DNA of 64,000 nt from Torpedo marmorata. Lineage: Eukaryota. Both the position numbers and the translations under genes were made by a program. Location of the stretch: NCBI GenBank assembly GCA_977017645.1, contig OZ360222.1, forward strand, positions 234,174,001 through 234,238,000, in the 5' to 3' direction. Under the pieces are notes generated by a model, which was not told the origin of the DNA, ran no database searches, and worked only from the letters and a program-made list of their open reading frames with translations. Below, piece after piece: positions 1 to 49,932 of this stretch. Within the stretch, counting starts at the first letter, position 1, and each line of letters opens with the position of its first letter.

Positions 1-1572
1 AGAGCAAAATGTCAGTTTGGTGTGAAGGAAATCACCTTTCTGGGAGATAAGCTGTCGGAGGCAGGTGTGGAGCCAGACAAGAGCAAGGTGAAAGCAATTC
101 TAGAGATGCCCAGACCCACTGACAAAAAGGGTATATTGAGAGTGCTGGGAATGATCAATTTAATTGGTAAATTCATCCCAAACCTGTCTTCCAAAACAAT
201 GTACCTAAGGAAGTTGTTACATGACAAATGTGAATTCAAGTGGACGGCCAACCACGAGGAAGAATGGGGACGACTGAAGACCATTCTAACTACAGAACCA
301 GTGTTTTTGACATTCTTTGACCCATCCAGAATGAAATCTAAGCAGATCGCAGCTGAAACAGAAAAGTTCACAGTTCTACAGAAGGTCATCAAGAATTTGA
401 ATGAAGGATGGCCTAGAGGTGAATGTCAGCCATACTACAACATCAGAGCTGAGCTGAGTGTTGTCAATGGGCTTCTACTCAGACAGAGCAGAATTGTCAT
501 TCCTCAATCACTGCGACAAGAGATGCTGAAAAGGTTGCATGAGGGGCATCTTGGAATGTAAAAATGCAAGAGGAGGGCCAGGACAGCTGTTTATTGGCCA
601 GGGATAAATGCTGACATTGACAGAATGGTTTCCAGCTGTGAGACCTGTTTGAAACATCACACAAAGCAGCCAAAGGAACCCATGATCATAACTGACTTAC
701 CAGCAGAACCATGGCAGAAAGTTGGGACTGATCTGTTCCACATGGATGGAAAGAATTACTTGCTGGTTATTGACTATCTATCGAACTATCCTGAGATGGC
801 ACTGCTTCCTAGCATGTCTGCTGCTTGTGTGATCAAATATATGAAATCGATCTTTGCAAGACATGGAATTCTTCAAATCGTCTGCAGTGACAATGGACCA
901 TGCTACAGTTGTAGAGAATTCCCGAACTTTGCAGAAGAGTATGATTTTGGACATGTGACTTCAAGTCCTCTGCATCCCCAGTCAAATGGTAAAGCAGAGA
1001 AAGGAGTTCACATAGTTAAACAGCTGCTCAAGAAAGCACAAGACAATGGCTCAGATCCTTATTTAGCTCTGTTGAGTTACCGAGCTTCACCACTTGAACA
1101 TGGCATGTCACCCACTGATCTACTGATGGGACGTAGACTATGTACCACACTTCCCTACTCTGCAGACTCAAGCAAGTACAGAGATGTTGAAGATGTCAAA
1201 CGGAAACAAAAGCATCTGCAAAGGGGACAAAAAGCAAACTATGACAAGTCAGCAAGAAGCTTAGGGCCACTGGCACAACATGACACAGTGAGACTCAGAG
1301 ATTCCAACACCTGGGACAAGAAGGCCACTGTTCTGGAGGAAGTAAATCCAAGATCCTACACTGTCAGAACAGAGGATGGTCAAATACTGAGGAGGAATCG
1401 AAAGAGCCTGCTGAAAACGCAAGTGACACTGCAAGAACAGACAAATGCAGAAGATCCAGCCTGCATAGCAACAGAGGAAATACCACCAGTGCTAGACAGT
1501 AGTGGACCAGCAGAGCCGACCATGAGAAGATCCACACGCGCTAACAAAGCACCTGACAGGCTGAATCTCTAA
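1..1572 (+). pseudogene. Disrupted Gypsy pol (RT end, RNase H largely deleted, HHCC zinc finger, DDE integrase)
   Basis: ORFs 22-561 and 625-1572 share a frame and are separated by TAA at 559-561 (LHEGHLGM*KCKRRARTAVYWPG...CETC). Integrase motifs: VGTDLF, VIDYLS, SDNGP, HPQSNGKAE. Confidence 0.9.
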
Positions 1573-2006: not shown

Positions 2007-3908
2007 CAATAAAACCCCTGCTATCTAACACCTATGGGGATTGGTAGATGCCGGATAAGTGTATCTTCTGGTTGCTTAAGACTTACTCGTACAATGCCTA
2101 ACTAATACAATTGCATTAAGAATAAATAGTTTAAAATACAAAAATACTATACTGTACTTACAATGAACAAACTTCACTTGCATGAATATGTAAAGCTTAA
2201 AGCATTTTACTTTATTTTCAGTCACATTTTTTGAAAACATTTAACCATCGCTGTATCTGCAGGTTCCTCCCCCTCCACGGAGCTGTCCGAAAGATGAGCA
2301 ATAGCATTATAGATAATTAATTCCCCCCTTCCCTCAAGTTTACAGATAAAGCCTCTGACCGGGGTGACTGTTACTAAACAGGGATAAGGAGACACATTAA
2401 GAGAGTCACCACAACAGTGAGCGGCATCAACCAGCTCTTCATCGTGGGCAATGCCATTTTATTCAAATTAAACTTTATTTAAATTAAAACACGAAAATCT
2501 GTGGACACCGTGGTTGAAGTAAAAACACAATGCTGGAGAAACTCAGCAGGTCAAATAGTGTCCTTTATATAGCAAAGGTAAAAATACATAACCAACGTTT
2601 CGGGCTTGAGCTCTTCATTAAGGTATGGAAAAATGTCGGCAGGCATCCAAATAAAAGAGTAGGGGGGGAGGTGTGGTCGCAAAGGCAGGAGGTGATAGGT
2701 GGAGAAGGGAGGGAGGGGACAGCAGTAATCAAGGGGAGGAGGGATGGCTAGGTGAATAGAGAGGGAAGGGGGGAGGAGAACTGGAAGGGAATAACGAAGG
2801 GGGAGCGGGGGGTAGAGGAGAGCAGGTTAGCACAAACCGGAAAAGTCGATGTTAATGCCATAAGCTGGAGAGACCCCAGATGGAAAATCAGGTGTTGTTC
2901 CTCCAATTTGCGGGTGGTCTTGGTGGGATAGTACATAAGGCCATGGACAGACGTGTGAGTATGGGAGTGTGACACAGAACTGAAATGGTTGGCTACTGGG
3001 AGGTCTCTGTCACTGGTGCGGACGGAGTGAAGGTGCTCAGCGAAGCGATCTCTCAATCTGCGACCAGTCTCTCTGATGTAGAGAAGGCCACAAGAGAGAC
3101 TGGGCGCAGATTGGGAGATCGCTTCGCTGAGCACCTTCACTCCGTCCGCACCAGTGACAGAGACCTCCCAGTAGCCAACTATTTCAGTTCTGTGTCACAC
3201 TCCCATACTCACACGTCTGTCCATGGCCTTATGTTCTATCCCACCAAGACCACCCACAAATTGGAGGAATAACACCTGAATTTCCATCTGGGCACTCTCC
3301 AGCCAGATGGCATTAACATTGACTTCTCCGGTTTCTGCTAACCTGCTCTCCTCTCCCCCCCCTCCCCCCTTCCCTTCCCCCTTTCTAGCTCTCCTCCCCA
3401 CCTTCCCTCTCTATTCACCCAGCCATCCCTCCTCCCCTTGTTCGCTGCTATCCCCTCCCTCCCTTCTCCACCTATCACCTCCTGCCTTTGCAACCACGCC
3501 TCCCCTCCTACTCTTTTATTCGGACACCTGCCGACATTATTCCATACCTTAATAAAGGGCTCAAGCCCAAAACGTCGGTTATGTATTTTTACTTTTGCTA
3601 TATAAAAGGACACTGTTTGACCTGCTGAGCTTCTCCAGCATTGTGTTTTTACCTAAACTTTATTCAAACTTTTTTCAAACAGCTGCTATGAGAAAAGCAC
3701 GACCAAGGCACTCCACTGGCTGACTATTTGCTTCCATCTTCACCAAAGTTTTATGCGTACTTCAGAGAATATTTACTTTTACAATTTTAAACTTGCGTAT
3801 TTTTACCTATTATTTTATTCTTTTTTTTTAAATGTATTTTCCTCCATTTTTTTGCCAGTTGCTTGAGGCTGCCAGTTGCTTGAATTCTGGATACCAGGGA
3901 TTTTACTA
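2007..3908. mobile_element. Non-autonomous Tigger/pogo-like DNA transposon, interrupted by a Penelope-like insertion
   Basis: Imperfect TIRs CAATAAAACCCCTGCTATCT (2007) and GGATACCAGGGATTTTACTA (ending 3908) followed by TA. Consensus CAGTAAAACCCC... is typical of Tigger-type TIRs. Confidence 0.6.
2488..3653. mobile_element. Penelope-like element (PLE) fragment with fold-back (inverted) structure; GIY-YIG C-terminus plus pLTR on both arms
   Basis: Arms about 2519-3075 and 3093-3652 are reverse complements. Translation CGLLYI(R)ETGRRLRDRFAEHL...VANHF...RKLEEQHLIFHLG is a GIY-YIG endonuclease end. Flanked by the direct repeat TAAACTTTATT(T/C)AAA at about 2469-2483 and 3654-3668. Confidence 0.85.
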
Positions 3909-13530: not shown

Positions 13531-14235
13531 ATAATAGCACACTTGGCATCTAGTTGGGCATGGAGCATCATAGAGGAGTCACATGAGAGCTGATAGCTGA
13601 TGCTGGGACCTGAAGTGAAGAGCCTGAACCCTGAACCATTGTGTGACTGGTTAATCTGGGGCATAGAATCCTGGATCCCAGGGTTTTGTGTGTGTGTCGG
13701 AAGGAAAGGTTTATGTGAGGAAAGGAGGAGATGGCATCGGTTGGTAGAGGAGCTTGGAGGGGTGTGTATTTTGGGTGCACATTGTCTGCACGTTGTCCTG
13801 TAAAGAGACGGTCACTTTAAAGTCAAGCAGGGTGACAAAGGCTGCCACAACCCCTTAATTCGACCTCGTTTTGGAGATGATTTAACCAATGTCAGCAGGG
13901 ATAGTAAGAATGTTACAGGTTGGTTTCATCACCTCCAGTGGGGAAAAGAAGCTGACCTTTACTCAGTGGTAGCATCTCACCCAAGTCAAATGATCGTGAA
14001 CTCACTTCCTCTCAAGAGATTGAGACATTATCCAGATTAACAGTTAATTTGGTGACAAGGGAATGCTGTGCTGTCAGAGATGTTCCAGATTGGGGGGGAC
14101 GTCACGTGATGGCGTAGAGTCAGGACGTATAAACCCGACCCTCCTGGGACTGTTAAAAAAAGTTTAACTAAAAAACGTCTTTTTAAAATTTTAATTTCTT
14201 TAAAAGTAATACTAAAGTATCAAGGAAAAACAAGA

Positions 14236-15358
14236 ATGCCTCCAAAGAAAGAAAAAAACAACTAAAGACTTACCTAAAGTCCAACGAAAAGGGAAGACAT
14301 CGACTGCAAAAAGGCCTCGACGACAGGGAGCTGAAGTTCAAACGGAGCCCCAGGAAGAGGCTCTGTTGATGGGAACAGTTGCAGGCACCGATCCCTCCCA
14401 ACGGCAAAAACATGGCGCCGGTGAGGAAATCGGGCCTGAACCGCGCATGCGCGAAACTCCGCAACCTACTTCGGATACAACGACATCAGATCAGGGAGAC
14501 ACGAGTAGCTCCGATCTGGATGACGAGGGAGACCAGCTGGAGGCCGAAGAAGTACAACAACAACCACCGGAGGAATTACAACTAACATTTAAAGGTAAAT
14601 CACCAAGCAATGCAGCTTTATTAGCAGTATTAAAAGAACTAAAGGAAGACATGAAATATGTTAAAAAGGTGATTGATGACATGAAAGGCTTGAAGTTAAA
14701 AGTGAACAAGATTGAAAATAAAGTTAAGAAAATGGAAACAGAAGTGGAAACTACTGAAGGAAGAGTGGAGGCAATGGAAAATAATTACACTGTTTTAGAA
14801 ATGGAAAATAAGAAGCTTAAGCAACAAGTGGACATATTGGAAAATTTTAGTAGAAGAAACAACATAAAAATCGTTGGTCTTAAAGAAGGAGAGGAGGGAC
14901 AAGATATGATTGCATTTATGAAGGCTTGGATACCTGATGTGTTGGGTACAGATAAGTTTGAACATGAAATTGAAATTGAAAGAGCCCATAGGACTCTAAG
15001 AGCAAGACCATCACAAGATCAATACCCGCGTTCAATATTGGTCAAATTTCTACGATATCATGATAGAGAAAGAGTTCTGCAGTTGGCATTGGAGACGGCA
15101 AGACTGAGAGGAGGTCCCTTGATCTATAAAGCAGCTAAAGTTCTTTTTTACCCTGACATAAGTGCTGATTTGATGAAGAGGAGGAAAGAATTTAATCCAG
15201 TTAAAAAGACTTTGTGGGAGAAGGGATACAGATTTGTATTGCGACACCCAGCGACCTTGAAGATCTTCATACCAGACCAACAAAACAAATTCTTTACAGA
15301 CTATACTTTAGCAGAGGAATTTGCTAATGAGCTGCCGCTGATTAGGGATGAGCGCTGA
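14236..15358 (+). pseudogene. L1 ORF1 (coiled coil, RRM, CTD) with a +1 frameshift near the N-terminus
   Basis: Motifs LENFSRRNNIKIVGLKE, IERAHR, PRSILVKF, FYPDIS. ATG 14236 (MPPKKEK) joins the 14366 frame if one A is removed from the A7 run at 14252-14258. Confidence 0.88.
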
Positions 15359-15785
15359 AAAATGAATGTTTATTATATTGGTTAATGGAGTGATATATAT
15401 CAGTTTGTAACTTGGTAAAACTGATGATAAAAGAATGTCTATGCTAAAAATATTATACCAGGAGGGTTGGGGGGAGGAGGATGAGATCCTGACTTCTACT
15501 ACAATCATGTGTACTTTCGCGGCCAAGGTCGCGACCCGTAAAATAGAGGGGGGTAGCGCTGTATATATTAATAGCGCTAGTGGGGATGTAGTTAGATTAT
15601 GTTTTCTTTTTTGTAGAGAGGGGGGAATGTATTCATCAATTGTATATTTTTTTCTTTTTAACTGTGTTCATTGCTGGAAGGGACACATGTTGGCTCGATG
15701 TAGATTGAAGAAAGAAGTTGAAGAGAGTGAGATAGGGGTCTGGGATGGAAGAGGTAACATTAACAGGAATGAAATATAATTAAAA

Positions 15786-18700
15786 ATGAGTAATATATTG
15801 AAATTTTTGAATTTTAATATTAATGGGATAAATGGACCAATTAAGAGGAAAAGAGTTTTAGCATATATTAAAAAATTGGGTGTTGATGTGGCTTTTTTAC
15901 AAGAGACACATTTAACAGAGAAGGAACATCTGAAATTAAAAAGGGACTGGGTGGGGTATGTAATGGCTTCTTCATTTAACAGTAAGGCAAGGGGTGTGGC
16001 AATTTTAATAAAAAATAATCTTCCAATTAAGATACAAAATGTCGTGACAGATCCTGCAGGGAGATATGTAATGATCAATTGTCAGATATATTCCAAATTT
16101 TGGACTTTTTTGAATATATATGCTCCTAATACAGATGATGATAAATTTATTCAAGAGACCTTTCTTAATATAGCGGAAGCGCATGAAAATATTATAATAG
16201 GGGGAGATTTCAACTTTTGCTTAGATCTGGTTTTAGATAAATCTACAAGAGGAGTGAGGAGAACTAAAGCAGCAAAGGCTACGTTGGTATTAATGAATGA
16301 TCTAAACTTGATTGATGCCTGGAGGAGAATTCACCCTAGAGATAAAGATTTTTCATTTTATTCTACTAGACATGACTCCTATTCTAGAATTGATTTATTT
16401 TTAGTCTCAGCTCAAATGCAAGATAGAATTTTAGAAGCAGAATATAAAGCTAGAATTTTGTCTGACCATATTGATGACAGTGGTTACACCTGATAAAGAG
16501 AAATCGGTATACAGATGGAGACTAAATCCTTTATTATTAAAGAGAACAGATTTTTGTGACTTTATAAGGAGGCAAATTCAAATATTTTGTGAAACAAATT
16601 TAAATTCAGTGCCTGACAAATTTGTAATATGGGAAACGTTAAAAGTATTTTTAAGAGGTCAGATTATAAGTTATTCTTCAAAAATTAAAAAAGATTACAT
16701 GAAAGAAGTAGATAAATTAGAAAAAGAGATAACGATTTTAGAAAAAGATTTGCAAAAGAGGAGTTCTATAGATAAACATAGACAATTAACTAATAAAAAG
16801 TTACAGTATAATATGTTACAGACTTATAGAATGGAAAAAACTATTATAAGAACTAAGCAAAGATATTATGAGTTAGGTGAACGTGCACATAAAGTATTAG
16901 CATGGCAATTAAAAACGGAACAGGTATCAAGAACAATTAATGCAGTTAAAACTGAGACTGATGTTATTAGTTATAAACCTCAAACAATAAATGATTCTTC
17001 TAAAAAATTTTATTCTGATTTATATAAATCAGAATCTTTACAAGACGATAGTAAAATTGATGGTTACCTATCGCAGATAAATTTACCAAGATTAAATACA
17101 CAAGAGCGATTAGAACTAAGTACACAGTTTACGTAGAGGGAAGTAAAGGATGCAATTAGCTCATTACAAAGTAATAAAGCACCGGGAGAGGATGGTTTTC
17201 CACCAGAGTTTTATAAAGAATTCAAGGAATTATTAATTCCTATTTTTATGGATATGTTACAGCAAGCTTCAGTGACCCACACACTTCCGGAATCTTTTTC
17301 CACTGCAATAATTACAGTAATACCAAAAAAAGATAGATATCCATTGAAACCCTCATCATTATTGAACGCAAATTATAAGATTGTGGTAAAAATCTTGGCA
17401 AATAGGATAACAAAATTTTTGCCAAAATTAGTAAATATGGATCAAACAGGTTTTATAAAAAAAAGACAAGCAGCTGACAATGTAGCAAGGTTACTTAGTA
17501 TTATGCATTTAGCCCAAAAAAGGAAAATGCCAAGTATAGCAGTGGCATTAGATGCAGAGAAAGCTTTTGACAGGTTGGAATGGGACTTTTTATTCAAAGT
17601 TTTGGAGAAATTTGGATTTGGGAAGACTTATATAGATTGGATTAAAGCATTATATAATGCTCCAAAAGCTAAAGTAGTGACCAATGGACAAATATCAACT
17701 TCGTTTTGTTTAACAAGATCTAGTCGGCAAGGGTGCCCATTGTCACCAGCTTTATTTGTATTAGCTATAGAACCGTTAGCAGAGGCTATTAGAAGTGATT
17801 TGGCAATTAAGGGATTTATAGTTGGTCAAGAGCAACATAAAATTAATTTATTTGCGGATGATGTTTTAATATACTTGACAGAGCCTGAGACTTCTTTGCA
17901 AAGACTACATTTCAAGCTGGAGGAATATGGAAAAGTCTCTGGTTATAAGATAAATTGGGATAAAAGTGAAGTTATGCCTCTTACAGAGGGAGACTATACT
18001 GTATGTAAAAGAACTACTCAGTTTAAATGGCCACATAATGGAATAAAATATCTTGGGGTTCGGACAGATAATAAATTAAAAAATTTATATAAATGGAACT
18101 ATGTACCATTACTTAACAAGATTAAGGAGGATTTAGAAAAGTGGATTAATTTACCAATTACACTGATAGGAAGAGTTAATTGTATCAAAATGAATATATT
18201 TCCAAGGATACAGTATTTGTATCAGACTATACCTATTTTATTACCACAGGTTTTCTTTCAGGATTTAAATAAACAAGTGCGAAAATTTTTATGGAAAGGT
18301 AAAATGTCAAGAGTTTCAATGGAACGTTTAACATGGAAATATGAATTGTGGGGTTTGCAACTCCCTAATTTTAAGAATTATTATCGAGCGGCACAAATGC
18401 GATTTGTTGCTTCTTTTTTTGAAACTGAAGAAAGACCTGCGTGGGTTGGAATAGAACTAGGAGAAATAGGAGAAAAGATGATACAAGAATTTATATACAA
18501 ATGGAATTCAAAACTACTGACAGGTGTTAAAGAAACGCCGTTTTTAAAACATTTGATTAATGCTTGGAATAAAGTTAATGATGACATAGGGTTGAAAGGA
18601 AGTATATCACCCAAAATGCCTTTGATACAGAATAATCTTATACCATTTACAAAAGATAATCCATTTTTAAATACTTGGTCATTAAAAGGAATAAAGAAGA

Positions 18701-19540
18701 TAAAAGATTGTTACGAAGGAAATCAAATGATGTCATTTATACAATTACGGAATAAATATGGAATACCTAATAATACTCTTTTTTGTTATTTTCAATTAGG
18801 AGGTTATTTAAGAGAAAAATTAGGTCCAGACTTGTTGTTACATGATTGTAGTGAGGTAGAAACTCTTATTAGGAAAGGAAATACTAAGAAATTTACTTCT
18901 ATAGTATATTCTTTGCTACAAAGGGGAGCTTTAAAACGAGGACTTCATAAATCTAGACAAAGATGGGAACAAGATCTTAATGTTATAATTGATGAAAAAA
19001 GGTGGTCAGACCTATGTTTAGATAGTATGACTAATACTGTTAATGTAAGATATAGATTGGTACAATATAACTTTTTACATCAATTATATCTTACACCACA
19101 AAAATTGAATGATAAACTATACGATATCAAATAGATGCTTTAGATGTGGTGAAGAAGAGGGAACCTTTTTACACTCAACGTGGTCATGTTCAAAGGTTAA
19201 AGGTTTTTGGATAGAGTTAGGAAATCGGTTAAAACAAATTACAGGTGTTACATTTCCACAGAATCCTGACTTATTCTTATTGGGAAACGTGGAAGGAACT
19301 AGACCAAAATTGAAGTTATCTACATGGCAATTGAAATTTGTAAAAATTGCATTAGCAGTAGCAAGGAAATGTATAGCAGTAACTTGGAAATCAGATACAA
19401 ATTTAAGTATGGATAGATGGAACTCAGAGATGCAGAGTTGTATTCCATTGGAAAGAATAACATATAATATGAGGAATAAATATGGGGTATTTTTGCAAAT
19501 TTGGCGTCCATTTATCCAATTATTAGGAATGAATATTTAA
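15786..19540 (+). pseudogene. L1 ORF2 (APE endonuclease, RT, CCHC), broken into four pieces
   Basis: EN motifs NINGIN, LQETH, NIYAPN, GGDFN, SRIDLF, SDH. RT motifs DAEKAFD, RQGCPLSP, FADD. C-terminal CFRC...HSTWSC. Frameshift at about 16470, in-frame TAG at 17134-17136, frameshift at about 19110-19125. Confidence 0.95.
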
Positions 19541-20725: not shown

Positions 20726-20963
20726 CTTAGTTTAAGGTATCCATTAAATAAACTAAATTGTGCTAACGTGTTGAGTTTAATTTTAATTCTACTGCCATAC
20801 ACAATGAATTAAAATCAATTGTTTGGCTTAGTTGAATGACAATTCTGTGTTACTTCAATTCTGAAATTATGTTGTTGGTTCTTACAAAAAGTGGGCATAT
20901 TAGAGGAGTGAAGTGTACTATTTATTAGAGATATTGTTATCTACGAAATCCAGTTTGAGTGGG

Positions 20964-21618
20964 TGTCATGTTGGGAAGAGTATCAGGTTCGGTGGGTTCA
21001 CAGAGAGACGAGTCTGGACACAAGTGTTAGAATCACACGTAACTTTTATTAACACACAGGAAACAAACAGGGGAGAACGTTAAACGGTACTCGATCACTA
21101 TTTCACTTAAGCGACGATATAGACATTCACCTCAGACTTCGGTTGGATTCCGACAACGGTAAACCTATACTCGACTCGCTCACACACTACAAACAGGGAC
21201 ACTTACACACACCCGGTTCCCTGACCAATGGGGTTGTGGCTCCCTGCAAGTATTGATCTATCACAATACTACGGCTCAGCTTCAGTGTAGTGCACACCTT
21301 ACCCGCGACACTTCCAGCGATGTCCACAGTAGCGACCTGGCGTGGAGCGATGTCCAGGGCTTGGACCACGAGGCAGAGAGAAAGAATGTGCTATGCATCG
21401 ATGTTTTATACAGTTCTGATCTGGGCATCTAGCCAATAATGACCCTAGGTGATTTAAATTAGGCAATGGCAAGGTGTGCACTAATGGGTGGCCGGAGTCC
21501 AACCTTGATTGACAGGTGATGTGACTTCCGATAAGTTTCAAATGGGGAGGACACATGACCACCCGCAATACACACATTACAGACAGGCAGGGAGGCCACG
21601 TTTCCTCCACACACAACA
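20964..21618 (-). repeat. 3' LTR (655 bp)
   Basis: TG...CA termini, adjacent to the PPT, - strand TATAAA at about 21405 and AATAAA at about 21045-21050. Confidence 0.92.
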
Positions 21619-23135
21619 TTCCACCCCTCGGAAGTCACATCACTCTGCAATCACTATGAAGACAATCAATAACTCTATGTACATGTTATAACTATATAAA
21701 AAAAAGAAGAGAAAAAAAACAAAAAGGCATGTTAAAATAAAAACGATATCAATCAATAGATCAATATATACACAAGTGCCTTCTGTATGCTGGACAAGGC
21801 ACATAATCAAATTCAATGACAACACCTCACCAGCTACCACCCCCCCGCCCCTCCCCCCCTCCCCCCAGCCAAACAGGGTCGCTGTGTTTCTGATGGAGCA
21901 GGGTGCTGTGGGAGCTGCTCCCCAGTGTCAGAGGGGAGGGTAGAGAAAGAAATTTGTTTGGTCACCAACTCACGTGCCTGGTTTCTCCGGCTTGGCTGGC
22001 AAATGTGAGCACCCTTACCTCCAACGTCTGCGAGCAGGCAGTGCAAGGTCATCCATCAGGTGCCAGAGCCCTCTCTTGGCTTGCGCATCCCGCACCTTGG
22101 CCTCACGCTTGGGCGCTCCCTAAGCACAGCGCCCAGATGCCCTTCGCCGTGCTATCCCATGGTGAGGCAGGGGGCAGGCTGGCAGGCATACATTCAGGGT
22201 GTACCCGGAGAGCCCCGTTTTTCTGGGCTGTCGTCCGACACCAGGATGCCGTTCCTGCTCGTGTTCTCTTTAAACGGGTTCCACAAGTGCCTGTGTTGGA
22301 TCCTTGTAACGAGAGCCAGGAGGAGTCGGGACTGAAAGTTAGCCAATTTGTGATTTTAAGTAAAAGCTCTTGAAGCCCCCACCCCATGAGGCATTTGTTT
22401 CTGTTAATGGGAGGGCTGGGGCGATGCTGTCATTGTCAAGTGAAACAAAATATATACAATGTTTATTACTATTGTTTGATCAATGACACTCTACTTATTA
22501 ACTGTAACTTTGAATCTGTGACACTACGTATAAATTGTAACTGAGTCTGTGACACTCTACTTATAAATTATAACTTCAATTCCCTGAGTGTGCTTAGTAA
22601 AAACATCATTACTACAGCTCAGGGTGATTAAAAAGGAGAAAAACAACACAAAAGGTCCATTACAAAGTCTGTGCCCATAATGCGAATAACAATAGATGCA
22701 ATTGAATGTCCAATGCTGAGGTTTAGGTTTCCATGGCAACAGCTCTTGCCCGTCTTGCTGAGAGCTCTTTGCATAATAAGTGACAGGTGTTTCTTGCTGA
22801 TTGCTGCTGTAGTGACTGAAATCAGTGATGGGATCGCAGCAATCTGTTTTGATGAGCGTTTCGTAGACCCTCACATTGAGAAGAGGAACAGCTTGAAGGG
22901 TCGTCTTCTCCTGTGGGGGGTGAGTGTTTGGGAGAGCTCACAAGATAGATTAGTCAGGGGCCACCTCCGGTGGGGGAGGACCAGAGGGGAGGCTGGTCCA
23001 GGTCGGAGTGGGCAGCACATGGGAAACTCCACCCCCACGGAGCTTCCCGCTGCAATGCTCTCTCCAGAGAGCACACATATCTCCATAAGTCACCGGCAGG
23101 GTGACGTTGCCGAACTTCCCCTCAGCCCTGAAAAC

Positions 23136-24499
23136 TCAAGCAGGAATTCTCCGCTCCGTGTACTCCGATCCCTCCAGGAGGATAATGGCTTCCCAGACCA
23201 CCTTCCTGGTTACCAGTCCCATGAGGGGCAAGACAACACCTCCAAGGTTGAGGCATGCAGTGGTGACTAAATAGCCCACCAAGGCACCAGTCACCTTCGT
23301 GCTCCCTGAGAGGTGGTGCTCGCAGGTGCCCCCGTAGAGACCCACGATGAGTGCCCGCTCCCTAACACCCTGCGTCCCAATGCCAATGGTGTGACACTGT
23401 GGCCGGCTGTGTTGGCCCCATTCTAGGAGAGCAGGGAACCTGGCCCGGACCGCAGTCACCACCCATTCCCATAGGGTGGTGCCATCATCGACCCCTTCTG
23501 GCGGCGCTCACAAGGCATTGCCAGTCGTCTGTTGGTCAGACAGACCACCCAGGGCGCTCGCTTCCCAATGAGAGAAAAGGGAATTGGGAGCCCCCTCGTC
23601 TCCCAACTGAAGCAGCGGTATGGTTAGGTGTTCAGTTAGCCACTTAGCAGAGTAGTCCTGGGACTCCATTATCTCACAGTGACCACCTACATTCCCACCC
23701 GAGGTCCCCCCATTTTCGGCTACCTCCTCCTCTTGGAGGGTTGGCGGGGTGCCCTCGTGGTAGACCTGGGACCGCGTGCTCAGTGGTCAGGCTTGTAAAG
23801 GCTCGGCATACAGGGAGGAGGAAGTGTGTCGTGGGACTCAGTTTCCTCATGGTTATCACCATCCATCCACACATACCCATCCCCCAAACACATGTTGGTC
23901 CCCTCCCCCCGCTGGACTTTGGCTCAGATGTTACCTGAGTCAAGCTGCGAGCCAGATCAGCGAGCTGCTTGCAACTGCTGTGTTTCAATCAGCTTGGAAG
24001 CTGCCTCCATGACTTTAATTTCTAAGTTGGTCGCTTGCCCTTGGGCAATCTACACTGCCTCTTGCAGTTCACAACAGTCATGTTGCAGGGATTCTATCTC
24101 CCTATCTTTCTTGGTGCCCTGACTACTTATCTCGGACGTGATACCCCACTGGCACCTAAGCAGGGATATCAGTAACCATAGGGCTCCCCCACAACTCCCC
24201 CCGGCGTCGGTAAACCCCAGTAACTCCAGGTGGGAGACTACATGGTGCCCTATCTTCTCTCCGTGGGGGTCCAACCTGTCGACCGAATCGACTGGCATGG
24301 CGTGGCTTGCCAGCCACGCCGCCAAATGGCTGAACACCTGATGGTCATCGGTCCAACCGGGGATTTTATAATCCGACCCCAGGGTCCCTTCCCTATTTGT
24401 GGGTCGCCTCCTGCTGCCCCCGTTGGTGAGCAGGTACACAATCACACATGCACCCGACAGGACACCCACATACACACTTGTTAATACGATCTCCCACAT
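23136..24499 (-). pseudogene. Degraded gag (matrix-like region, coiled coil, capsid-like region)
   Basis: IPGW...HLAAWL...GALWLLISLLR, then a coiled coil, then LLQLGDEGAPNSLFSHWEASALGGL...TLWEWVVTAVRARFP...CHTIGIGTQGVRERALIVGLY in one frame with a TGA at about 23508-23510. Resembles recalled ERV-S/ERV-L Gag motifs. Confidence 0.65.
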
Positions 24500-24562
24500 T
24501 GTTAGTACGATCTTCCACTCCCACGTGGTTAAGACTCCACGTGTGTCCAGCCGGAACTCTTT

Positions 24563-24582
24563 GAACCCTGCTCGCAGCGCCA
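24563..24582 (-). promoter_or_regulatory. Primer-binding site complementary to the tRNA-Ser 3' end
   Basis: + strand GAACCCTGCTCGCAGCGCCA closely matches recalled vertebrate tRNA-Ser(TGA/CGA) 3' ends (...GAACCCTGCTCGCTGCG-CCA) and lies 2 nt from the LTR. Confidence 0.75.
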
Positions 24583-24584
24583 AT

Positions 24585-25242
24585 TGTTGTGTTGGGAAGA
24601 GTATCAGGTTCGGTGGGTTGACAGAGAGATGAGTCTGAACACAAGTGTTACAATCACACGTAACTTTTATTAACACTCGTGAAACAAACAGGGGAGAACG
24701 TTAAACGGTACTCGATTACTATTTCACTTAAGCGACGATATAGACATTCACCTCAGACTTCGGTTGGACTCCGACAACGGTAAACCTACACTCGACCCGC
24801 TCACACACTACAAACAGGGACTATTACACACACACCCGGTTCCCTGACCAATGGGGTTGTGGCTCCCTGCAAGTATTGATCTATCGCAATACTACGGCTC
24901 AGCTTCAGTGTAGTGCACACCTTACCCGCGACACTTCCAGCGATGTCCACAGTAGCGACCTGGCGTGAAGCGATGTCCGGGGCTTGGACCACGAGGCGGA
25001 GAGAAAGAATGTGCTATGCATCAATGTTTTATACAGTTCTGATCTGGGCATCTAGCCAATAATGACCCTAGGTGATTTAAATTAGGCAATGGCAAGGTGT
25101 GCACTAATGGGTGGCCGGAGTCCAACCTTGATTGACAGGTGATGTGACTTCCGAATAAGTTTCAGACGGGGAGGATACGTGACCACCTGCAATAAACACA
25201 TTCCAGACAGGCAGGGAGGCCACGTTTCCTCCACACACAACA
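24585..25242 (-). repeat. 5' LTR (658 bp)
   Basis: TG...CA termini, near-identical to 20964-21618, - strand TATAAA and AATAAA, adjacent to the PBS. Confidence 0.92.
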
Positions 25243-25429
25243 GTGGGGCCTTGTCTGTTAATGGCTGTCATAATTGCAATTTTGGAGAGGCAGTGAACTG
25301 TAACTAAAGAACATGGTCCATCGTAGGGAATGTTGGATGAATTAAGATTAATGACTGTAGAAATGAAAATAACATTATGCCTTGGATACAAATAGGTTCC
25401 CCATTTTTTTCTTTTTTGAGCCAGTTAAG

Positions 25430-27225
25430 ACCATAAGTCCATAAGATATTGGAGCAGAAGTAGGTCATTCAGCCCATTGAGTCCGCTCCGCCATTCCATC
25501 ATGTGCTGATCCATTCTCCCACTCAACCCCACTGCCCTGACTTCTCTCCATAACCTTTGATACCCTGACTATTCGGATGTCTATCAATCTCTGCCTTAAA
25601 TACACCCAACAACTTGGCCTCTTCAGCTGCCTGTGGTAGCGAATTCCAGAGATTCACCACTCTCTGGCTAAAGAAATTCCTCTGCATCTCTGTTTTAAAT
25701 GGGTGCCCTTCAATCCTGAGATTGTGCCCTAATGTCCTGGACTCCCCTACCATTGGAAACAAGTTTGCCACATCTACTCTGTCCAGACCTTTCAAAAATC
25801 GAAATACTTCCATGAGCCCCTCCCCCATTCTTCTAAACTTCAAGGAGTGCAGTCTAAGAGCTGTCAAATGTTCCTCATATGCTAATTCTTTTATTCCAGT
25901 AATCATTCTTGTGAATCTTCTCTGAACCCTCTCTAAAGTCAGCACATTCATTCTTAAATAAGGAGCCCAAAACTATACCCTGTACTCCAAGTGAGGCCTC
26001 ACCAGTGCCTTAACATCACATCCCTGCACATCCTCTAGATATGAATGCAACATTGCATTCACCTTCTTCACCATTAGGCCTTTTCACACCGCCGAGTTCA
26101 TGTGGGCAGACCGTCCAATTTCCCGGGAACTTACCTGTAAAATGTCCAGTCTAAAAAGGCCCAACCTGGCATGGCAGGTCAAAATCGACCAGGCTCCGAG
26201 ACCTAGTCGGGGGGTACTCTCGGAGCCCGGACGAGTTAACCCGGCAGCCGTCCTCTGGCGGTCTGAAAAAGCAAATGGCTCACCCAGTAATATTATTGAC
26301 GTCAGCGCCTGCGTGCTTGCGTCACATAAAACCTATAAAAATAGAAATAAGAGATACAACAATATAAATGTTACTTTAATGATGGCAAAGGGACCTAAGC
26401 CACAATATTAAAAGTATTTTAAAATTGAAACATTTGTAGCTTACCGAGATCAAAAAACAACAGGTCTGCTCAGGGCAGCGGCGGCAGCGGCTCAATGTGG
26501 GATCAATGGCCGTCTTCGTTACCCATAATCCCCCACGCAGCTGGAACCGCTCTGCGTTTCCCTGGCGCTGGCAAAGTGGCAGAGCGGTTCCAGCTGCGTG
26601 GGGGATTATAGATAACGAAGACGGCCATTGATCCCGCATTGAGCCGCCGCCCTGAGCGGGCCCGTTGTTTTTTGAAACATTTCCTGTGAGTGCGTAACGC
26701 GTCACTCGCACCGTCGTTGTTGGAGGCGGGACCGCCCTTAAATTGCCTGGTTGCTACTTCTACAGGTAAGTTAGGCTGCAGTCTGAAAGAACGCGGAGGT
26801 CCAGGCTTCGCTGGAACTTTTCCCGGGACACAAGATGTCGGCGGTCTGAAAACGCCTACTGACTCAACCTGGAGGTTAAGCTTTAGGGTATCCTGCATGA
26901 GGACAACCCAAGTCCCTTTGCATCTCCGAATTTTGAATTTTCTCCCCATCCAAATAATAGTTGTCCTTTTATTCCTTCTACCAAAATACATGACCATACA
27001 CTTTCTGTTTCCTCCTCACTACCTGCCCCTCCACCTATCTTTGTATCATCTGCAAACTTAGCACAAGGCCATTTATTCTGAAATCCAAATCATTAACATA
27101 CAATGTAAAATGAAGTGGCCCCAACAACGACCCCTGCGGAACACCACTGGTAACCGGTAGCCAACCAGAATAGGATAACTTTATTCCCACTCTGTTTCCT
27201 GCCGATCAGCCAATGCCGATCAGAT
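25430..27225 (-). mobile_element. CR1-type LINE 3' portion, interrupted at 26076-26857
   Basis: ORF 25523-25951 (LERVQRRFTRMI...FFSQRVVNLWNSLP) and an RT trace [10 protein letters not shown] near 27115-27145. (CTTATGG)-type tail at about 25430. Confidence 0.9.
26076..26857. mobile_element. Non-autonomous PIF/Harbinger-like DNA transposon (782 bp) nested in CR1
   Basis: TIRs AGGCCTTTTCACACCGCCGA and TCGGCGGTCTGAAAACGCCT. 3-bp flanks ATT/ACT restore the CR1 sequence. Repeated subterminal GTCTGAAA motif. Confidence 0.75.
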
Positions 27226-27733
27226 AATGCTCTACCAATGATCTGGTATCAATGGACATTACTTGTCAATATTTAAAGGTGTCAGCCAGTTTGGAATTGG
27301 AAAAGTGTTCTTGGGCAGAATGTTTTTATTATCTGAAACACACTCAATTTAATTATAAGAATAAGTGAAAGTTTCACAGTTATTGCAATTATTGAACACT
27401 TTGTTTTTTTATATTCTCAATGGAGGTTTTGCATAATAAGATTAGGATAAACTTTTGCTTGTATTCCCTGACACCATACTGAAATATGATGAGGTATAAA
27501 GCACATGCAGAATAAGAATCCCTCAACTTCGGAGGGATTTATTTTATAAGTGGCTTGCTTTCAGCTTGGCCTTACTGCAAGGGTCATTGCTCAGGGATGT
27601 GCCTAATGGGGACTAGCTGATTCTGGGCCCCACTATTTTCTAAGCATTGAATGAGTGCTTCCACCAGATCACAGATGGTTTACACCTGGCAACGTATCCC
27701 ACATTGTGCCTAAACTATTCTGATGCCCTAAAC

Positions 27734-28094
27734 CAGTGGTTTTCAAACTTTTTCTTTCCACTCACATACCACCTTAAGTAATCCCTATGCCATTGGTGCT
27801 CTGTGATTAGTAAGGGATTACTTAAGGTGGTATGTGAGTGGGGAAAAAAGGTTGAGAACCACTGCTCTAGACCCAATTGTTACTGAAATATTTTACTTGA
27901 GAAAAATTGTCATTGGCCCATTTCCTTTGGAGTTATGAGACCGTGCACAGAACGAGTCAATTAGGTACGATTAAAACAGTGGTTTTCAAACTTTTTCTTT
28001 CTACTCACATACCACCTTAAGTAATCCCTTACTAATCACAGAGGGATTACTTAAGGTGGTATGTGAGTGGAAAGAAAACGTTTGAAAACCACTG
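27734..28094. mobile_element. Composite hAT (Charlie-type) MITE, copy 1
   Basis: CAGTGGTTTTCAAAC TIRs, 8-bp TSD CCCTAAAC/CCGTAAAC, two palindromic units separated by a spacer of about 110 bp. Confidence 0.85.
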
Positions 28095-28267
28095 CCGTAA
28101 ACCAATGCCTGCCTTTGAACTAGAAGTCCTATGGTGCCAGAGCCCTCCACCACCTGCCAAGTTGTTGCATAGACCCAAGGTCAGGAGGTTGCCATGTACT
28201 GTATCACCATTTTAAAAGCCCTTGGATGAGCCACCTACCATCTCTCCCATTCTTCAGCCACAGCATC

Positions 28268-35785: not shown

Positions 35786-36743
35786 TCCTAATGGGACACC
35801 CTCATCATGAAAACGTGTTTGGCAAACGTACCTTACTGTGATAAATGATACTGAAATTCAACATTGTGTCATCTTTGTGTGAGATCATGTGTTATATCCA
35901 ACTATGTTCTGAAGCTTACCCTGCCCATAAGTCGATCATGAAGAGGAAGGCATGCTGATTGAGGAACCTAGTATCAGATAGCCTAAAGCTATCAATTTCC
36001 CTTATCATTCAGCTGGTAAATTCAGTTAAATCATTCACTTCCCAATTAATGATGAGTGAGCTGACCTTAGCTAGGCTGGCAACTAGTTTGATGGTGAACA
36101 GGGTAGCTGGTTACAATCAGGTAATTCTGATGTGGACATAACAACAGTACATACACATATCCCCAATTCTATGCTCTAATATTTTCCACTGAAGTCTTTG
36201 CGCCACAGTAATACTGGTGCTGTAATGAAATTGTCCTGTCATTAATCACTTTGCACAGCTCATTAAATATACATCACTATTCTGGAGGTTAATCTAACAT
36301 TATCATGTAAAACCAGTGGTTAAATGCTTATGACACCATACCAAGATTACATCTAACAGAAACCGGCAGTGTAATTTTATTTCTTTCCATTCCTTTACTT
36401 CAGTATATAATACAAGTCTCATTTAAGTGAATTGCTTTCGTTGCTTTAGCATTTGAAATATGGGGTCTAATCAGAGCTTGTTGTAAAAGTGAATGAAGGA
36501 GAAAGCCTCTTCGTTCCCATTATGCTGTGTCAGTGAGTTCTTAGAACCCAGCTTCTCTGTCCCATTGGAATATCAATTGCTAACGTTATCACTCAGAATG
36601 TTGTCAGCTTTTTGATTTTGTTTTATAGACTATTGATGATCATTTAAATTTATAAGATAATAACCAAAAATTGCTACAGCAAAGGTCATATTTCTATTGA
36701 AGGTTTTCTTAGACAAATACAATGTAAGCTATAAGGTCTAAAG

Positions 36744-37118
36744 CAGTGGTTTTCAAACTTTTTATTTCCACTCACATACCACCTTAAGTAATCCCTATGC
36801 CATAGGTGCTCTGTGATTAGTAAGGGATTACTTAAGGTGGTATGTGAGTGGGAAGGGAAGGTTGAGAACCACTGCTCTAGACCCAATTGTTACTGAAATA
36901 TTTTGCTTGAGAAAAATTGTCATTGGCCCATTTCCTTTGGAGTTATGAAACCGTGCACATAACGAGTCAATTAGGTACGATTAAAACAGTGGTTTTCAAA
37001 CTTTTTCTTTCCACTCACACACCACCTTAAGCAATCCCTTACTAATCACAGAGCACCTATGGCATAGGGATTATTTAAGGTGGAATGTGAGTGGAAAGAA
37101 AAAGTTTGAAAACCACTG
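36744..37118. mobile_element. Composite hAT (Charlie-type) MITE, copy 2
   Basis: Same architecture and near-identical spacer as 27734-28094. 8-bp TSD GTCTAAAG/GTCAAAAG. Confidence 0.85.
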
Positions 37119-37299
37119 GTCAAAAGCACTCCTCTATCTTCTTCATCTATCAGAATGAAATACCTTCTTTTGATAATTTGACATGGGGTCTGCTGTTTAT
37201 ATTTAATAAAATAATCAATTGGCAGAATTTTCAGCCCATAATTCTTCAATTCTGTCCCTATTTCCTGTGAATGAGTAGAAACCCTTACCTTGAGATGAT

Positions 37300-41558: not shown

Positions 41559-42547
41559 AGAGTGCCGCAGGGGTCTGTACTAGGCCCGCAACTGTTCACC
41601 TACATACATTAATGATTTGGAAGAGGGGACTGAATGTAATGTATCCAAGTTTGTTAATTGGGTGGATAAGCAAATTGTGCCAAGGATGCAGAGAATCTAC
41701 AGAAAGATAGATAAGTTAAGTGAGTGGGCAATGGTCTGGCAGATGGAGAACGATATTCGTAAATGTGAAGTCATGCACTTTGGAAGAAAAAGTAGTAGAT
41801 CAGAGTATAAGTTAAATGGTGAAAGGTTGCAGCGTGCTATTGTGTAGAGGGACTTGGGAGGGCATGAATCACAAAAAGTTAGTTTGCAGGTAAACAAGAA
41901 GGCAAATGGAACGTTGGCCTTCATTGCTAGAGACATTGAATTTAAGAGCAGGGAGGTTCTGCTGCAATTGTACAGGGTACGGGTGAAGCCACACCTGCAG
42001 TACTGTGTGCAGTTCTGGTCTCCTTACTTGCGAAAAGATAGACTGGCTTTGGAGTCAGCACAGAGAAGATTCACCAGGTTGATTCTGGAGATGATGGGTT
42101 TATCTATGAGGAGAGATTGTGTTGCCTGGGATTGTACTCATTGAAATTCAGAAGAATGACAGGGGATCTCATAGAAGTATACAAAAGAGTTCAAGGGATA
42201 GATAAGATAGAGCAGGAAAGTTGTTTCAACTGGTAGGTGAGACTAGAACTAGGGAGAGCCTCAAGATTCGGGGGCTATACATAGGACAGAGATGAGGAGG
42301 AATGGCTTCTCCCAGAGAGTAGGGAATCTGTGGAATTCTCTGCCCAAGGAAGCAGTAGAGGCTGCCTCATTAAATATATTTAAGACACAGTTAGATATTT
42401 TTGCATAGTAGGGGAATTAGGGTTATGGGGAAACAGCAGGTAGGTGGAGCTGAGTCTACAGCCAGATCAGCCATGATCTTATTGAATGGCGGAGCAGGAT
42501 CGATGGGCGAGGTGGCCTCTTCCTGCTCCTGTTTCTATGTTCTTATG
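41559..42547 (+). mobile_element. CR1-type LINE, 5'-truncated
   Basis: VPQGSVLGPQLF, KCEVMHFG, KANGTLAFIAR, PHLQYCVQFWSP, QRRFTRLI, then 3' UTR and TTCTATGTTCTTATG tail. Confidence 0.9.
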
Positions 42548-44810: not shown

Positions 44811-47704
44811 GACAAAAATAGACAAATACTTGTCCTTACTTTTAGAATGTTTATTCTGGATATATCATCAAAAGATCTGAGAACTATATCCTGAATTTAA
44901 TTTTAATCTGTTTAATATTGATTCTAAAATCTGATTCTTCTGCTGACAGTCAATTTTACCCCTCCCAACATTATTTTAATTGCCCGTTACATCAACATAA
45001 CCTTCAGATTCCAAGAACTAAATTTACACACCTCACTTCATTGCAAGGTACCTGATGCTTGCCAAAGAAACATTCCTGTCAATCTTATTAATGCTTAGCT
45101 GACATCTCCAACTCTCTTTTTAATCCAAATTAAAATAAATTAACTTCCATGAGTTTCTATTCACAATCTAAAACCTTATGTCCTGGAATTGTTAATTAGT
45201 TTCCTTTTCCTGACCTTGCAAAAGTAATCTTTTAAAGGACTTAAAAATCTTAAATGCTTCAAATTTAACCTCATCAGTGAGGAGAATGTTAACTGACATT
45301 GACTTATTTCTAAAGTGCACGCCAAGACCTGATTACCTTTATACTGTACATAGATTTTTCACTTTTCCACCTATGCCAGTGGAGATTTCTTCATTTCAAC
45401 CTGCCTGTTGTCAGAATGTTCTCAGGCATTTACAATGTAATCATTGGATTATTGGGAGGCATTTAATTAATTTCATGCCTGATTGGGACCACACATATGC
45501 TGAAGCAAACCCCACCAGCAGGTATTTATTCCTTTCAAGGTGTTCACCAAACTGTTGTTCTGATAACAATCCAACATAGACTCTCTTCTCAAAAATCATC
45601 TTTTCATTTCCAGTTATTTTTTAAATCCATATTTGTACTGCCTAATATACCATAACACTATTTCAACTTGCTTTATCTCAGTTACTTGTCATAATGACAC
45701 CTTACCATAACACAAAAGTGCCTAATAATGAGAATCTTTGTCAAAATTCCTCTGAAAGTATAAATTAATTATAGACGTCAGCTCTGTTGATTGGGTTATT
45801 TCATCAAATACTTCCAAATTTTGAACCATTACTGCTTTTAAATTCCTGTTAACTGCTGCATATAACTTCAGTGACTTCTTATGAATTTCAACATCATTCT
45901 CTTAATCATATTCTTCACTGCACATGTCTCCTGTTATCTGACTGTTGTTCAGGATTACAGGACCTCAGCTATCATTCCTCCCTCACCCCAAAACAAGGTC
46001 AGTTGTTCTTACATTAGTGATTATTGAATTTTATCTTTCAACATCCTTTCGTCTAAACATTTATCATTTCATTCTGAACTCATGGTTTAAATTAAATAAT
46101 ATTTATTAATAGGAAGTTCCAACTTTTGTTCCTCATTTAACCTTCTCACAAAAATACTAAATTTGTCCTTTCAGAGTTTTAGTTGCATCTGATAACAAGC
46201 TGGTTTCCACAGCTGTAGAATTATATCCGCAGTAAAATGATTATTGAATGAAGATTTTCCATTAATGTGTACAGATACTGTTAGAGAGTTAGTTCAGTCA
46301 CATCTTGCAAGTCTCTGAGCTTGCATTGACCTTAGACTTTTTTAACCTAACAAAGTGAATTATATAATGTTCAGTTTTCACACCCAGCTTAGTATCCTGC
46401 AACCATGTTGAGTTGTAAGGAATCCTTGGTTGCATATATACACTGCTGTCATTTGCACAAAACAGCAACAGTGCTATAGCTACATAACTACAGCTCCTAA
46501 AGTGGCATATATGCGACATATATTAACCATTGAGTTTTAAAACACCTCTTGATTCATTGAATGTGAGTTCATGCAAATCCTAAATTTGTAAGGATAGAAA
46601 TGAAACTGGCAACATCTTGGGTTCTGACAGTAAGGGAGTGGTTGTTAACTTCTGTTTTTGTCTAAAGTTAAATTATACAAAAATCCCCACATCAATGTTA
46701 ACTGAGTTGTTCAGTCAACCTGTAACTATTTCTACATGAGCTCATTTGAAATGTAACCAACAAATGACTTTGTTAAATCAAAACCTTAAACCATGTTGAG
46801 GGAATGTGGAGGCCACTGAACCATTCCCAGAGCAAATGAGTTTCTTTGAAATCTGTTGCTTGAAAATTTTGCAAGCGATTGTTAAGGTTTTACCAGCAAG
46901 ATAATTTTAAAAATGTGAAATATGGCTGACAAACCTAATTTAGATTTTATTAAAGCTAATACTCCCGAAACAATTGAAATAGATTTAAAGCGACAAAAAG
47001 AATCAATAGTGAAAAGAAAGGAGGGATTGGACAGGGTTTTGTGTCTTTTTTCTTGTCATTTGAGACTCTAATGATGCACTTATGTTGCCCGCTCTTCCCT
47101 TTTTCTTACACCTTACCTACTTAAGGAGGAATTCTTGATTGGTAAGTCGATGCTACCCGCAGACTAGGGATTTATTATAGGTCGCTGGAGAGAATAGATT
47201 TCTTCTGCAGGAAACACAACAAAGCTGTACCTTTCAGAGGGGCTTTTTTAGTTAAAGTGATGGTCTATTTGTTTTGCGACTTTATTTTATACATAAACTC
47301 ATTTTGTGATGTTTGTTCATTGTCCTTTTTAATGCCACGCTTACTGGGGCCTCTTGGTTTTCTCCTTTTAATGCAGTATGTAGTCCTGTACGCACATCTT
47401 AATTTTACTTCCTTTACATCCTATTTATCATTTCTTGTGTTTCCTTTATTTTTGTTTTGAAAAAAATGCTTATTTATTTTTCTCTCTCCCATCATTCTTC
47501 TTTTATTATCACATCGTTCGCATGCTTTTTTTAAAAACAAAAAAAGAAAAAATATGCATGATATCTAATTCTACGAGTTTTCATGTTGGAAAGTTTTTCT
47601 TTTGTGTTTGGGGGTTAGGTGCCTTTGTAGAGAGTGCATCATACAGGTAGAAGACTGTCCCAGCAACACGGTGCCATGTAACAGCACAATGTTTCTGTTT
47701 GCAG

Positions 47705-49886: not shown

Positions 49887-49932
49887 GTACGATCAAAAAT
49901 CCACTGAGAGAGAGTGAAGGAGACAGATGAGA

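Follow-up and report, generated by a model that had tools for sequence, protein, structure and literature searches.

Provirus structure and family at the locus

The 64-kb stretch of the Torpedo marmorata genome analysed here (hereafter the window; contig OZ360222.1, positions 234,174,001 to 234,238,000) carries on its minus strand a retroviral element that an original prediction, made from the letters alone, had described as a pol-less provirus with a class III Gag and a tRNA-Ser primer-binding site (PBS). We confirmed that the locus holds a real provirus with two long terminal repeats (LTRs), a 5-bp target-site duplication (TSD), a Ser PBS and no pol. As argued below, it is very probably a defunct member of a non-autonomous family present in many copies, which descends from a class III retrovirus of ERV-S/XtERV-S-like type carrying a gamma-type env and was mobilised by pol-bearing relatives. 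The LTRs, predicted at about 655 bp, measure 658 and 655 bp, the GTGGG duplication is present on both sides of the element, and the polypurine tract noted earlier proved to be a short one (Table 1). The two LTRs are identical at 628 of 655 aligned positions, the 27 differences comprising 19 transitions and 8 transversions (p-distance 0.041, Kimura two-parameter distance (K2P) 0.043), and thus the by-eye estimate of about 5% was of the right order and slightly too high. At a mammalian rate this divergence corresponds to an (uncertain) age of roughly 10 million years, and at a rate ten times lower, as adopted for elephant shark (PMC4422223), to roughly 100 million years.

The interior spans 2,966 bp and, as predicted for a stretch of about 3 kb, no reverse transcriptase (RT) or integrase (IN) motif was seen in its three sense frames. 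Furthermore, no Pfam family was found in any of the 6 interior frames or open reading frames (ORFs) tested or in the 2 sibling-copy ORFs, and the 64-kb window holds no Rfam match or tRNA gene. The assignment of the PBS to tRNA-Ser held, its complement matching a tRNA-Ser(TGA) gene of the host's own genome at the 3' end: a 23-nt tRNA pattern gave 5 exact genome matches (reversed control 0), and ARAGORN called 1 of 4 fetched loci as tRNA-Ser(TGA). The Gag peptides quoted earlier were located in the frame 23786-22950. The description as a pol-less Gag element stands as regards pol; the element is not gag-only, since an env relic remains, and what had been overlooked was the 5' gag (24499-23885) and a decayed env within 22941-21700.

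Table 1. Features of the provirus, in window coordinates
Feature	Position	Strand	Description
Provirus	25242..20964	-	LTR-to-LTR element, pol-less
TSD	25243..25247 (upstream copy), 20959..20963 (downstream copy)	.	GTGGG (as read on +), 5 bp
5' LTR	24585..25242	-	658 bp, TGT...ACA ends; TATAAA 25033-25028, AATAAA 24671-24666
PBS	24564..24582	-	TGGCGCTGCGAGCAGGGTT, 19 nt, complement of tRNA-Ser(TGA) plus CCA; starts 2 nt past the 5' LTR
Decayed gag	22950..24499	-	contains a coiled-coil region, the capsid and a Pro-rich end, and lacks a CCHC knuckle
Hydrophobic Gag N-terminal segment	24422..24499	-	ATG start, 26 codons; Kyte-Doolittle mean of 2.13 in the best 19-residue stretch; basic patch next
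Patch of different ancestry	22860..24340	-	most similar to N3 copies (L112, L115); left boundary somewhere within ~24340-24040
Degenerate major homology region (MHR) motif	23589..23636	-	both conserved Trp absent in the window copy
Pro-pol deletion junction	22941..22952	-	gag end fused to stretch at pol end / env start of L112, L115
Decayed gamma-type env relic	21700..22941	-	no coding signature; relic of the immunosuppressive domain (ISD) region 22053-22008
Polypurine tract	21619..21629	-	short
3' LTR	20964..21618	-	655 bp

Genome-wide, the LTR probe gave 5,768 and the gag probe 4,375 first-look candidates (which are not copy numbers, 40 per probe being scored). The whole interior aligned in one piece in 9 of the 21 family copies fetched, the remaining ones being interrupted by insertions, deletions or the fetch end; since these 21 copies are the best-scoring hits, the sample is biased toward similar copies. 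A gag DNA tree was built with 42 rows, 20 of 62 loci having been left out because their coverage was low or their insertions large, and in it the 21 pol-less copies formed one star-like clade with a support of 100. The loss of pol is a family-level deletion, not one isolated deletion. A perfect 5-bp TSD was found in 7 of the 9 family copies with both ends read (a perfect 4- or 6-bp one in none of them), and the LTR pairs of the family have a median K2P of 0.061 (n=16). L011 (8.3 kb), considered as a full-length partner, turned out to be a pol-less copy of this same element, into which other insertions are nested. Another family copy lies 3 Mb off on the same contig (G000:C11:231106611-231108091), with an env relic 97% identical to that of the window (next matches 94%), and may be either a close sibling or a local duplication. 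Contigs with related copies came from four runs and three organisms, which indicates neither transcription nor host range. No account of this family, or of the hydrophobic Gag leader described below in a class III endogenous retrovirus (ERV), was found in the literature, subscription papers and Repbase reports lying outside the scope of that search.

Pol-bearing relatives and class membership

With the RT of the stingray protein P0005 as probe we recorded 151 matches in 150 scored genome candidates, and pol-bearing loci were fetched as 20 whole loci (first search), 20 from a second search, 40 pieces of 3.3 kb and 17 further long stretches. These loci split into subfamilies with a recognisable env (E1-E3) and subfamilies with gag-pro-pol and a decayed env (N1-N3), and the window family lacks pro-pol as well. 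The pol-bearing copies closest to the window element are L123, L124, L127 and L128: L124 carries the window LTR at 90% over 656 bp along with RT, RNase H and IN, and L127 and L128 carry pol and are 85-92% identical to the window in the LTR and 3' region. The original prediction had called the element non-autonomous, in need of an autonomous partner elsewhere in the genome, and both expectations are borne out by the absence of pol and by these LTR-sharing relatives. The N1 subfamily (L049-like) was set aside as partner, the L124 type being closer. Moreover, one of the 40 extra RT loci (L104/L112, subfamily N3) has the gag nearest to that of the window family.

The env of the relatives is of the gamma type. 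In L051 it follows the integrase and shows CWIC at residues 39-42, a furin site, the ISD LQNRMALDYLL and CX6CC, its match to Pfam TLV_coat (E 1.4e-4) lying under the curated cut-off. Env probes matched 11 of the 20 loci of the first set, 0/20 of the second and 0/21 pol-less copies. Two dUTPase probes, by which 7 control proteins were found, matched none of 57 pol-bearing loci, though a very divergent dUTPase could escape them; the IN core and the C-terminal domain, however, lie near one another.

Compared with solved structures, the partner RT scored highest with foamy virus (90 bits), followed by murine leukaemia virus (84), HERV-K (71) and Ty3 (69), a modest margin. In the RT tree (42 rows, LG+G4, ultrafast bootstrap/SH-aLRT) the 10 RTs of this genome and stingray P0005 made up one clade (100/100), within a group that also includes P0022 and P0024 (97/95); epsilon-like rows and Gypsy fell outside (100/100 for Gypsy). 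P0022 fits the XtERV-S Pol at 3 of 4 positions (length, DYRGLN and YIDD, with DTG 3 residues off), and P0024 matches the 'Chicken ERV' row in supplement 1 of PMC8278194. The partner RT thus groups inside class III, with the XtERV-S-like Pol and far from Gypsy; a grouping of Gag and partner RT inside Ty3/Gypsy had been named beforehand as an outcome that would overturn the class III assignment. The window family shows the structural traits of class III (5-bp TSD, TGT...ACA ends), and the partner RT does not show the Ty3/Gypsy combination of a position inside Metaviridae and no added RNase H. A scan of viral contigs with the RT gave no match.

Within class III, the Ser PBS, the gamma-type env (CWIC, ISD, CX6CC) and the lack of a dUTPase and of a zinc knuckle suggest an ERV-S/XtERV-S-like element, not a lokiretrovirus; the lokiretrovirus affinity raised as an option by the original prediction is not supported, given the gamma-type env of the relatives and an RT that nests among class III rows instead of lying sister to all other retroviruses (in a tree without a Loki reference). 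The group appears to work like ERV-S by its features and we refer to it as ERV-S-like, which does not place it in a clade with HERV-S. HERV-S has a Ser PBS. A Ser PBS, a class I env and no dUTPase are the traits that set ERV-S against ERV-L (PMC8278194, PMC4724089), and the group does not fit ERV-L in the strict sense (a dUTPase behind IN, a Leu PBS and no env), as it has no dUTPase, relatives with env and a Ser PBS, and its partner RT reads HSPT-x-CH where ERV-L rows read NSPALCHN. The claim that the lineage is poorly sampled in chondrichthyans was overstated, for clade III makes up the majority of ERV RT hits there (2,843 versus 2,018 for clade I in six Chondrichthyes genomes; PMC11089739 Table 2).

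The combination of a class III Pol with a class I env is known from XtERV-S, HERV-S and ERV-SA.a-Ppe. With XtERV-S of Xenopus tropicalis (PMC8278194) the group shares class III gag-pol, the tRNA-Ser PBS, TGT...ACA ends, the 5-bp TSD, YIDD, internally deleted copies, the absence of a myristoylation signal and zinc knuckle, a PSAP late motif (here in the relatives), and a gamma-type transmembrane subunit with CWIC near the start of the surface subunit (residues 40-43 versus 39-42 in L051). XtERV-S differs in that its env is intact and a dUTPase follows IN, whereas the window family is without pro-pol, its env is decayed and its Gag has an added hydrophobic leader; the RTs are ~53% identical and form separate clades. 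With HERV-S/ERV-S (PMC4724089, PMC8278194) it shares the class III backbone, the class I env and the lack of dUTPase, and the MHR of the pol-bearing relatives is near the HERV-S row (E-x-L-x-A-W-L-L-x-L-W-D-E-G) of the XtERV-S supplement; the host class is distant, and the likeness is one of features. ERV-SA.a-Ppe, reported in a survey of anamniotes with 6 cartilaginous fishes among them (bioRxiv 10.1101/2021.11.23.469661), likewise joins a class III Pol to a gamma-type class I env; it was called SnRV-related, its host may, to judge by the code, be a sawfish, and it may or may not be the same lineage as the window family.

Gag, env relic and mosaic ancestry

The window gag bears three stops in its 5' frame, a frame change near 23885-23790 and two stops in its 3' frame. 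As sibling copy L013 has 495 stop-free codons spanning both pieces, gag was originally a single ORF. The first MHR Trp is lost in 21/21 family copies read and the second in 19/21, and the MHR of the pol-bearing relatives resembles the rows given for HERV-S and for ERV-L in PMC8278194 (supplement 6). A phmmer search with the L013 Gag ORF against 1.84 billion proteins returned 8 hits (three from stingray, two from electric ray, one each from snake and newt, and an unnamed protein; one is called Fv1-like), the best of which, P0005, includes RT as well, and the Atlas model of the Gag homologue P0006 came nearest to an Fv1 cluster (TM 0.36/0.50). The class III (ERV-S/ERV-L-like) Gag of the original prediction agrees with the relatives' MHR and the Fv1-like hits, and its cartilaginous-fish origin with nearest database relatives that come from rays. 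No match was obtained with Gag in a PDB sequence search, a word-index homologue search with the window Gag found 0 among 6,608 candidates, and P0003 gave no usable match in the ESM Atlas. The Gag N-termini carry no myristoylation signal, and none of 7 Gag proteins checked has a CCHC knuckle. We also observed that stingray and electric ray RefSeq models (P0005, P0007, P0009, P0010, P0092-P0098) are ERV Gag or Gag-Pol pieces; several such ray models bear the name 'Friend virus susceptibility protein 1-like' or are fusions with host genes. In stingray, long Gag-Pol ORFs also occur in a second lineage of class III, the P0017 cluster.

Downstream of gag, the window matches the env region of N3 locus L112 in two parts, 22941-22722 with the start of that region (74% identity; score 93 versus ~28 shuffled) and 22395-21619 with its remainder (72%; score 245 versus 28.7 +/- 3.1 shuffled). 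N3 copies in turn match the transmembrane stretch of L051 (E 3e-7) and, in the ISD region, share 87% identity with window positions 22053-22008. Furthermore, a DNA profile built from 8 env-bearing copies matches the window at 22392-22147 (E 0.001), its two window matches (1e-3, 0.5) being in colinear order; the same profile gave 1e-60 with N3, up to 1e-10 with N1, up to 2e-7 with pol-less copies and 0/100 with shuffles. A hidden accessory gene in this 3' region was considered and rejected (pN/pS 0.65-0.96 in three sense frames, many-pair comparisons).

In its ancestry the window family is mosaic, combining parts of two pol-bearing subfamilies. When compared with L124 in sliding windows, the element shows an identity of 0.86-0.96 as far down as 24343; the identity falls to ~0.6-0.7 over 24042-22843 (shuffle level 0.55-0.63) and is 0.83-0.94 thereafter, and outside 24340-22860 the identity to the LTR-sharing pol-bearing copies equals the sibling-copy level. 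The segment trees conflict accordingly, the pol-less family grouping with N1/N2 in 5' gag (100) and the env relic (96-99), and with N3 in the gag middle (93); these trees were made by a quick method, are unrooted, carry SH-aLRT support only and had 3, 3 and 19 rows dropped. Both flanks of the deletion junction match N3 best (gag end 73-83%, env start 78-91%). As to direction, we infer that an N3-derived, already deleted piece was probably copied into an L124-like backbone.

We further surveyed the Gag N-terminus in copies with a readable PBS and IPGW motif. In 11 of 13 readable env-bearing copies the PBS-to-IPGW distance is 99-103 nt and no hydrophobic stretch is present (best 19-residue hydropathy at most 0.59), most env-bearing copies having the short basic start M-F-W-N-R-G-K/R, as in other class III Gags. 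The distance is 181-223 nt in all readable N1-N3 (21/21) and pol-less (22/22) copies, and in 12 of these 21 and 20 of these 22 the additional stretch keeps the reading frame and encodes a hydrophobic segment (hydropathy at least 2.0), most others being frameshifted. We report as a new observation that the env-decayed lineages gained an in-frame hydrophobic Gag segment (~25 residues) absent from most env-bearing copies. Its pN/pS is 0.23-0.24 between the pol-less family and N1 or E2 and 0.47-0.72 in other comparisons, values that stem from 26 codons only and from pairs that are not independent. Two E2 copies, L051 (G000:C5:266435600-266445500) and L094 (G000:C11:134106300-134109600), have the hydrophobic leader ahead of an E2-type gag, and it looks as if they acquired it by recombination; the LTR pair of L051 is the least diverged seen (K2P 0.026).

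The hydrophobic Gag N-terminus of the mouse intracisternal A particle (IAP) is said, after work by Ribet in 2008, to be responsible for its targeting to the endoplasmic reticulum (ER). The leader found here resembles that ER-targeting leader, and a similar function is putative. IAP Gag is carried to the ER membrane by the signal recognition particle (PMC3945221), and in mouse IAP/IAPE, as in the present group, a decayed env goes together with a high copy number (PMC10536682, PMC12992720); IAP is class II, from an unrelated retroviral class and host, and ER targeting is proposed here by analogy. It is tentatively conceivable, at somewhat under an even chance, that the env-decayed lineages swapped the basic start for a signal-anchor-like segment that sent assembly to internal membranes, that this segment spread by recombination into E2, and that, among the passengers of this process, the pol-less family was amplified most.

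Besides the provirus, the window contains a near full-length LINE at 14216-19540 (+), with an ORF1 of 380 aa and an endonuclease-RT ORF2 split over several frames, which we take from its motifs to be of the L1/Tx1 type. A 336-aa open frame at 562-1572 (+) with zinc-finger and integrase-core motifs presumably belongs to a Gypsy-type element, and LINE 3' fragments at 25523-25972 (-), 41797-42530 and 57086-57943 are presumably CR1/L2-like. Other features are two copies (27728-28103 and 36735-37120; 96% alike) of a short MITE-like element with long terminal inverted repeats, a long nested inverted repeat of repeat-element pieces at 2513-3658 (arms 91-96% complementary), a Ser- and Asp-rich open frame of 138 codons at 47651-48067 (+) that resembles a host exon, a C-rich short-unit tandem array at 49884-50700 and the sole N stretch (62512-62667, 156 bases). 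Elsewhere in the genome (G000), a genome-wide integrase search found an abundant family unrelated to the provirus, which is probably young in view of its near-identical integrase cores in long open frames (700-1,170 codons). Among the database proteins, P0105 (88 aa, labelled Klebsiella pneumoniae) sits in an owl ERV Pol cluster and is probably contamination.

Proposed mobilisation, competing readings and significance

We propose that RNA of the window family would be transcribed from its own LTR and packaged in particles of the pol-bearing relatives that share LTR, leader and 3' region (L123/L124/L127/L128 type), that reverse transcription would be primed by tRNA-Ser(TGA), and that integration with 5-bp TSDs would take place in germ-line cells. 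Intact cis signals, the absence of pol and partners with the same LTR and PBS speak for such mobilisation in trans, and the ages of family and partners overlap for at least one N2 copy (K2P 0.041). As the first MHR Trp is lost in all family copies read and the second in most, the family would have amplified with a damaged capsid motif; its capsid was probably already defective, and it probably borrowed capsid/Gag as well as Pol, as a passenger for both. Co-packaging with the partners would also explain the mosaic.

A number of points weigh against this interpretation. The RT tree holds no mammalian ERV-L, HERV-S, foamy, snakehead retrovirus (SnRV) or lokiretrovirus RTs, and the class III placement therefore rests on the XtERV-S-like and bird anchors and on the supplement motifs. 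Mobilisation in trans is deduced from common cis sequences and overlapping ages; the N1 copies look older than the family (LTR K2P median 0.093, n=7, versus 0.061), and the overlap with N2 comes from a single dated LTR pair. Protein-level env profiles miss the window, the link to env being made by DNA and partly via N3. The second MHR Trp is retained in 2 of 21 family copies and the dN/dS of the family's capsid stem is noisy (0.24-1.34 depending on outgroup), so that the case for a lost capsid function depends chiefly on a single motif. The AlphaFold model of the capsid region has a pLDDT of 48.6; for this low-confidence model the best Z, obtained with a Gag-derived domain, is 4.3 (92 positions aligned, rmsd 4.3), and Foldseek gave no match at E <= 0.001. 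As for the leader, its presence in two env-bearing E2 copies weakens a strict tie to env loss unless these are recent recombinants, and its DNA is TG-rich, so hydrophobic codons are possible by chance.

The pol-less family might instead hold the ancestral gag, N1/N2 having taken in a different gag middle. This is unlikely, though the strongest of the rivals: the middle segment does set N1/N2 apart by a long branch (0.17, support 100) in unrooted trees, whereas the N3-like flanks of the junction and the abrupt return of L124 identity at ~22860 are what would be expected if a deleted N3 piece had entered an L124-like backbone. We give slightly less credence to a family that supplies its own working Gag and borrows only Pol, or whose Gag is useful to the host, after the manner of BHIKHARI in zebrafish or ENS-1/ERNI in chicken (PMC12067270), which likewise consist of LTR-gag-LTR without pol and encode a coiled-coil and capsid Gag. 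The maintenance of gag length across copies (with the stop-free L013), a dN/dS of ~0.4 on the family stem for the N-terminal 110 codons and the leader pN/pS of 0.24 versus N1 would suit it; the MHR Trp losses, a Gag C-terminal region shorter than in the relatives, the fact that an uninterrupted frame from start to stop codon was demonstrated in none of the fetched copies, and a within-family dN/dS of 0.60-0.72, like that of other decaying subfamilies (0.48-0.84), argue against it. Moreover, BHIKHARI and ENS-1 are young, with an intact Gag acting in development (BHIKHARI being a lokiretrovirus and the ENS-3 RT described as sister to ERV-L; PMC12067270), whereas the window family is old (LTR K2P 0.04-0.09), with a degenerate MHR and an env relic. 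A lokiretroviral or Ty3/Gypsy origin is highly improbable. A coiled-coil and capsid Gag without zinc knuckle also fits BHIKHARI Gag (PMC12067270), and the weak fold matches are headed by the Gypsy-derived capsids MOAP1 (Z 4.3) and PNMA2 (Z 4.0), but these scores are within noise, the partner RT groups with class III RTs to the exclusion of Gypsy, and the relatives' env is gamma-type and that of Loki paramyxovirus-F-like (PMC7947760).

Taken together, derivation from an ERV-S/XtERV-S-like retrovirus and mobilisation by its pol-bearing relatives remains the reading that we favour. Class III ERVs, a class III backbone with a gamma-type env and pol-less passengers are already known, and the locus alone is ordinary; its value lies in the graded series found in one genome, in which env-bearing, env-decayed and pol-deleted subfamilies occur with datable LTRs. 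With equal-length probes the env relic is about six times commoner among first-look candidates than a recognisable env (3,003 versus 529; a rough comparison), as the 'env-less superspreader' idea predicts, and the group supplies non-mammalian ERV-S-like material for placing ERV-S relative to ERV-L. To our knowledge, the route from virus to intracellular transposon has so far been documented mainly in mouse class II elements. The change of the Gag N-terminus alongside env decay offers a testable molecular step on this route, and the IAP-like reading, if true, would represent its independent origin in another retroviral class and in a cartilaginous fish, with the intermediate stages side by side.

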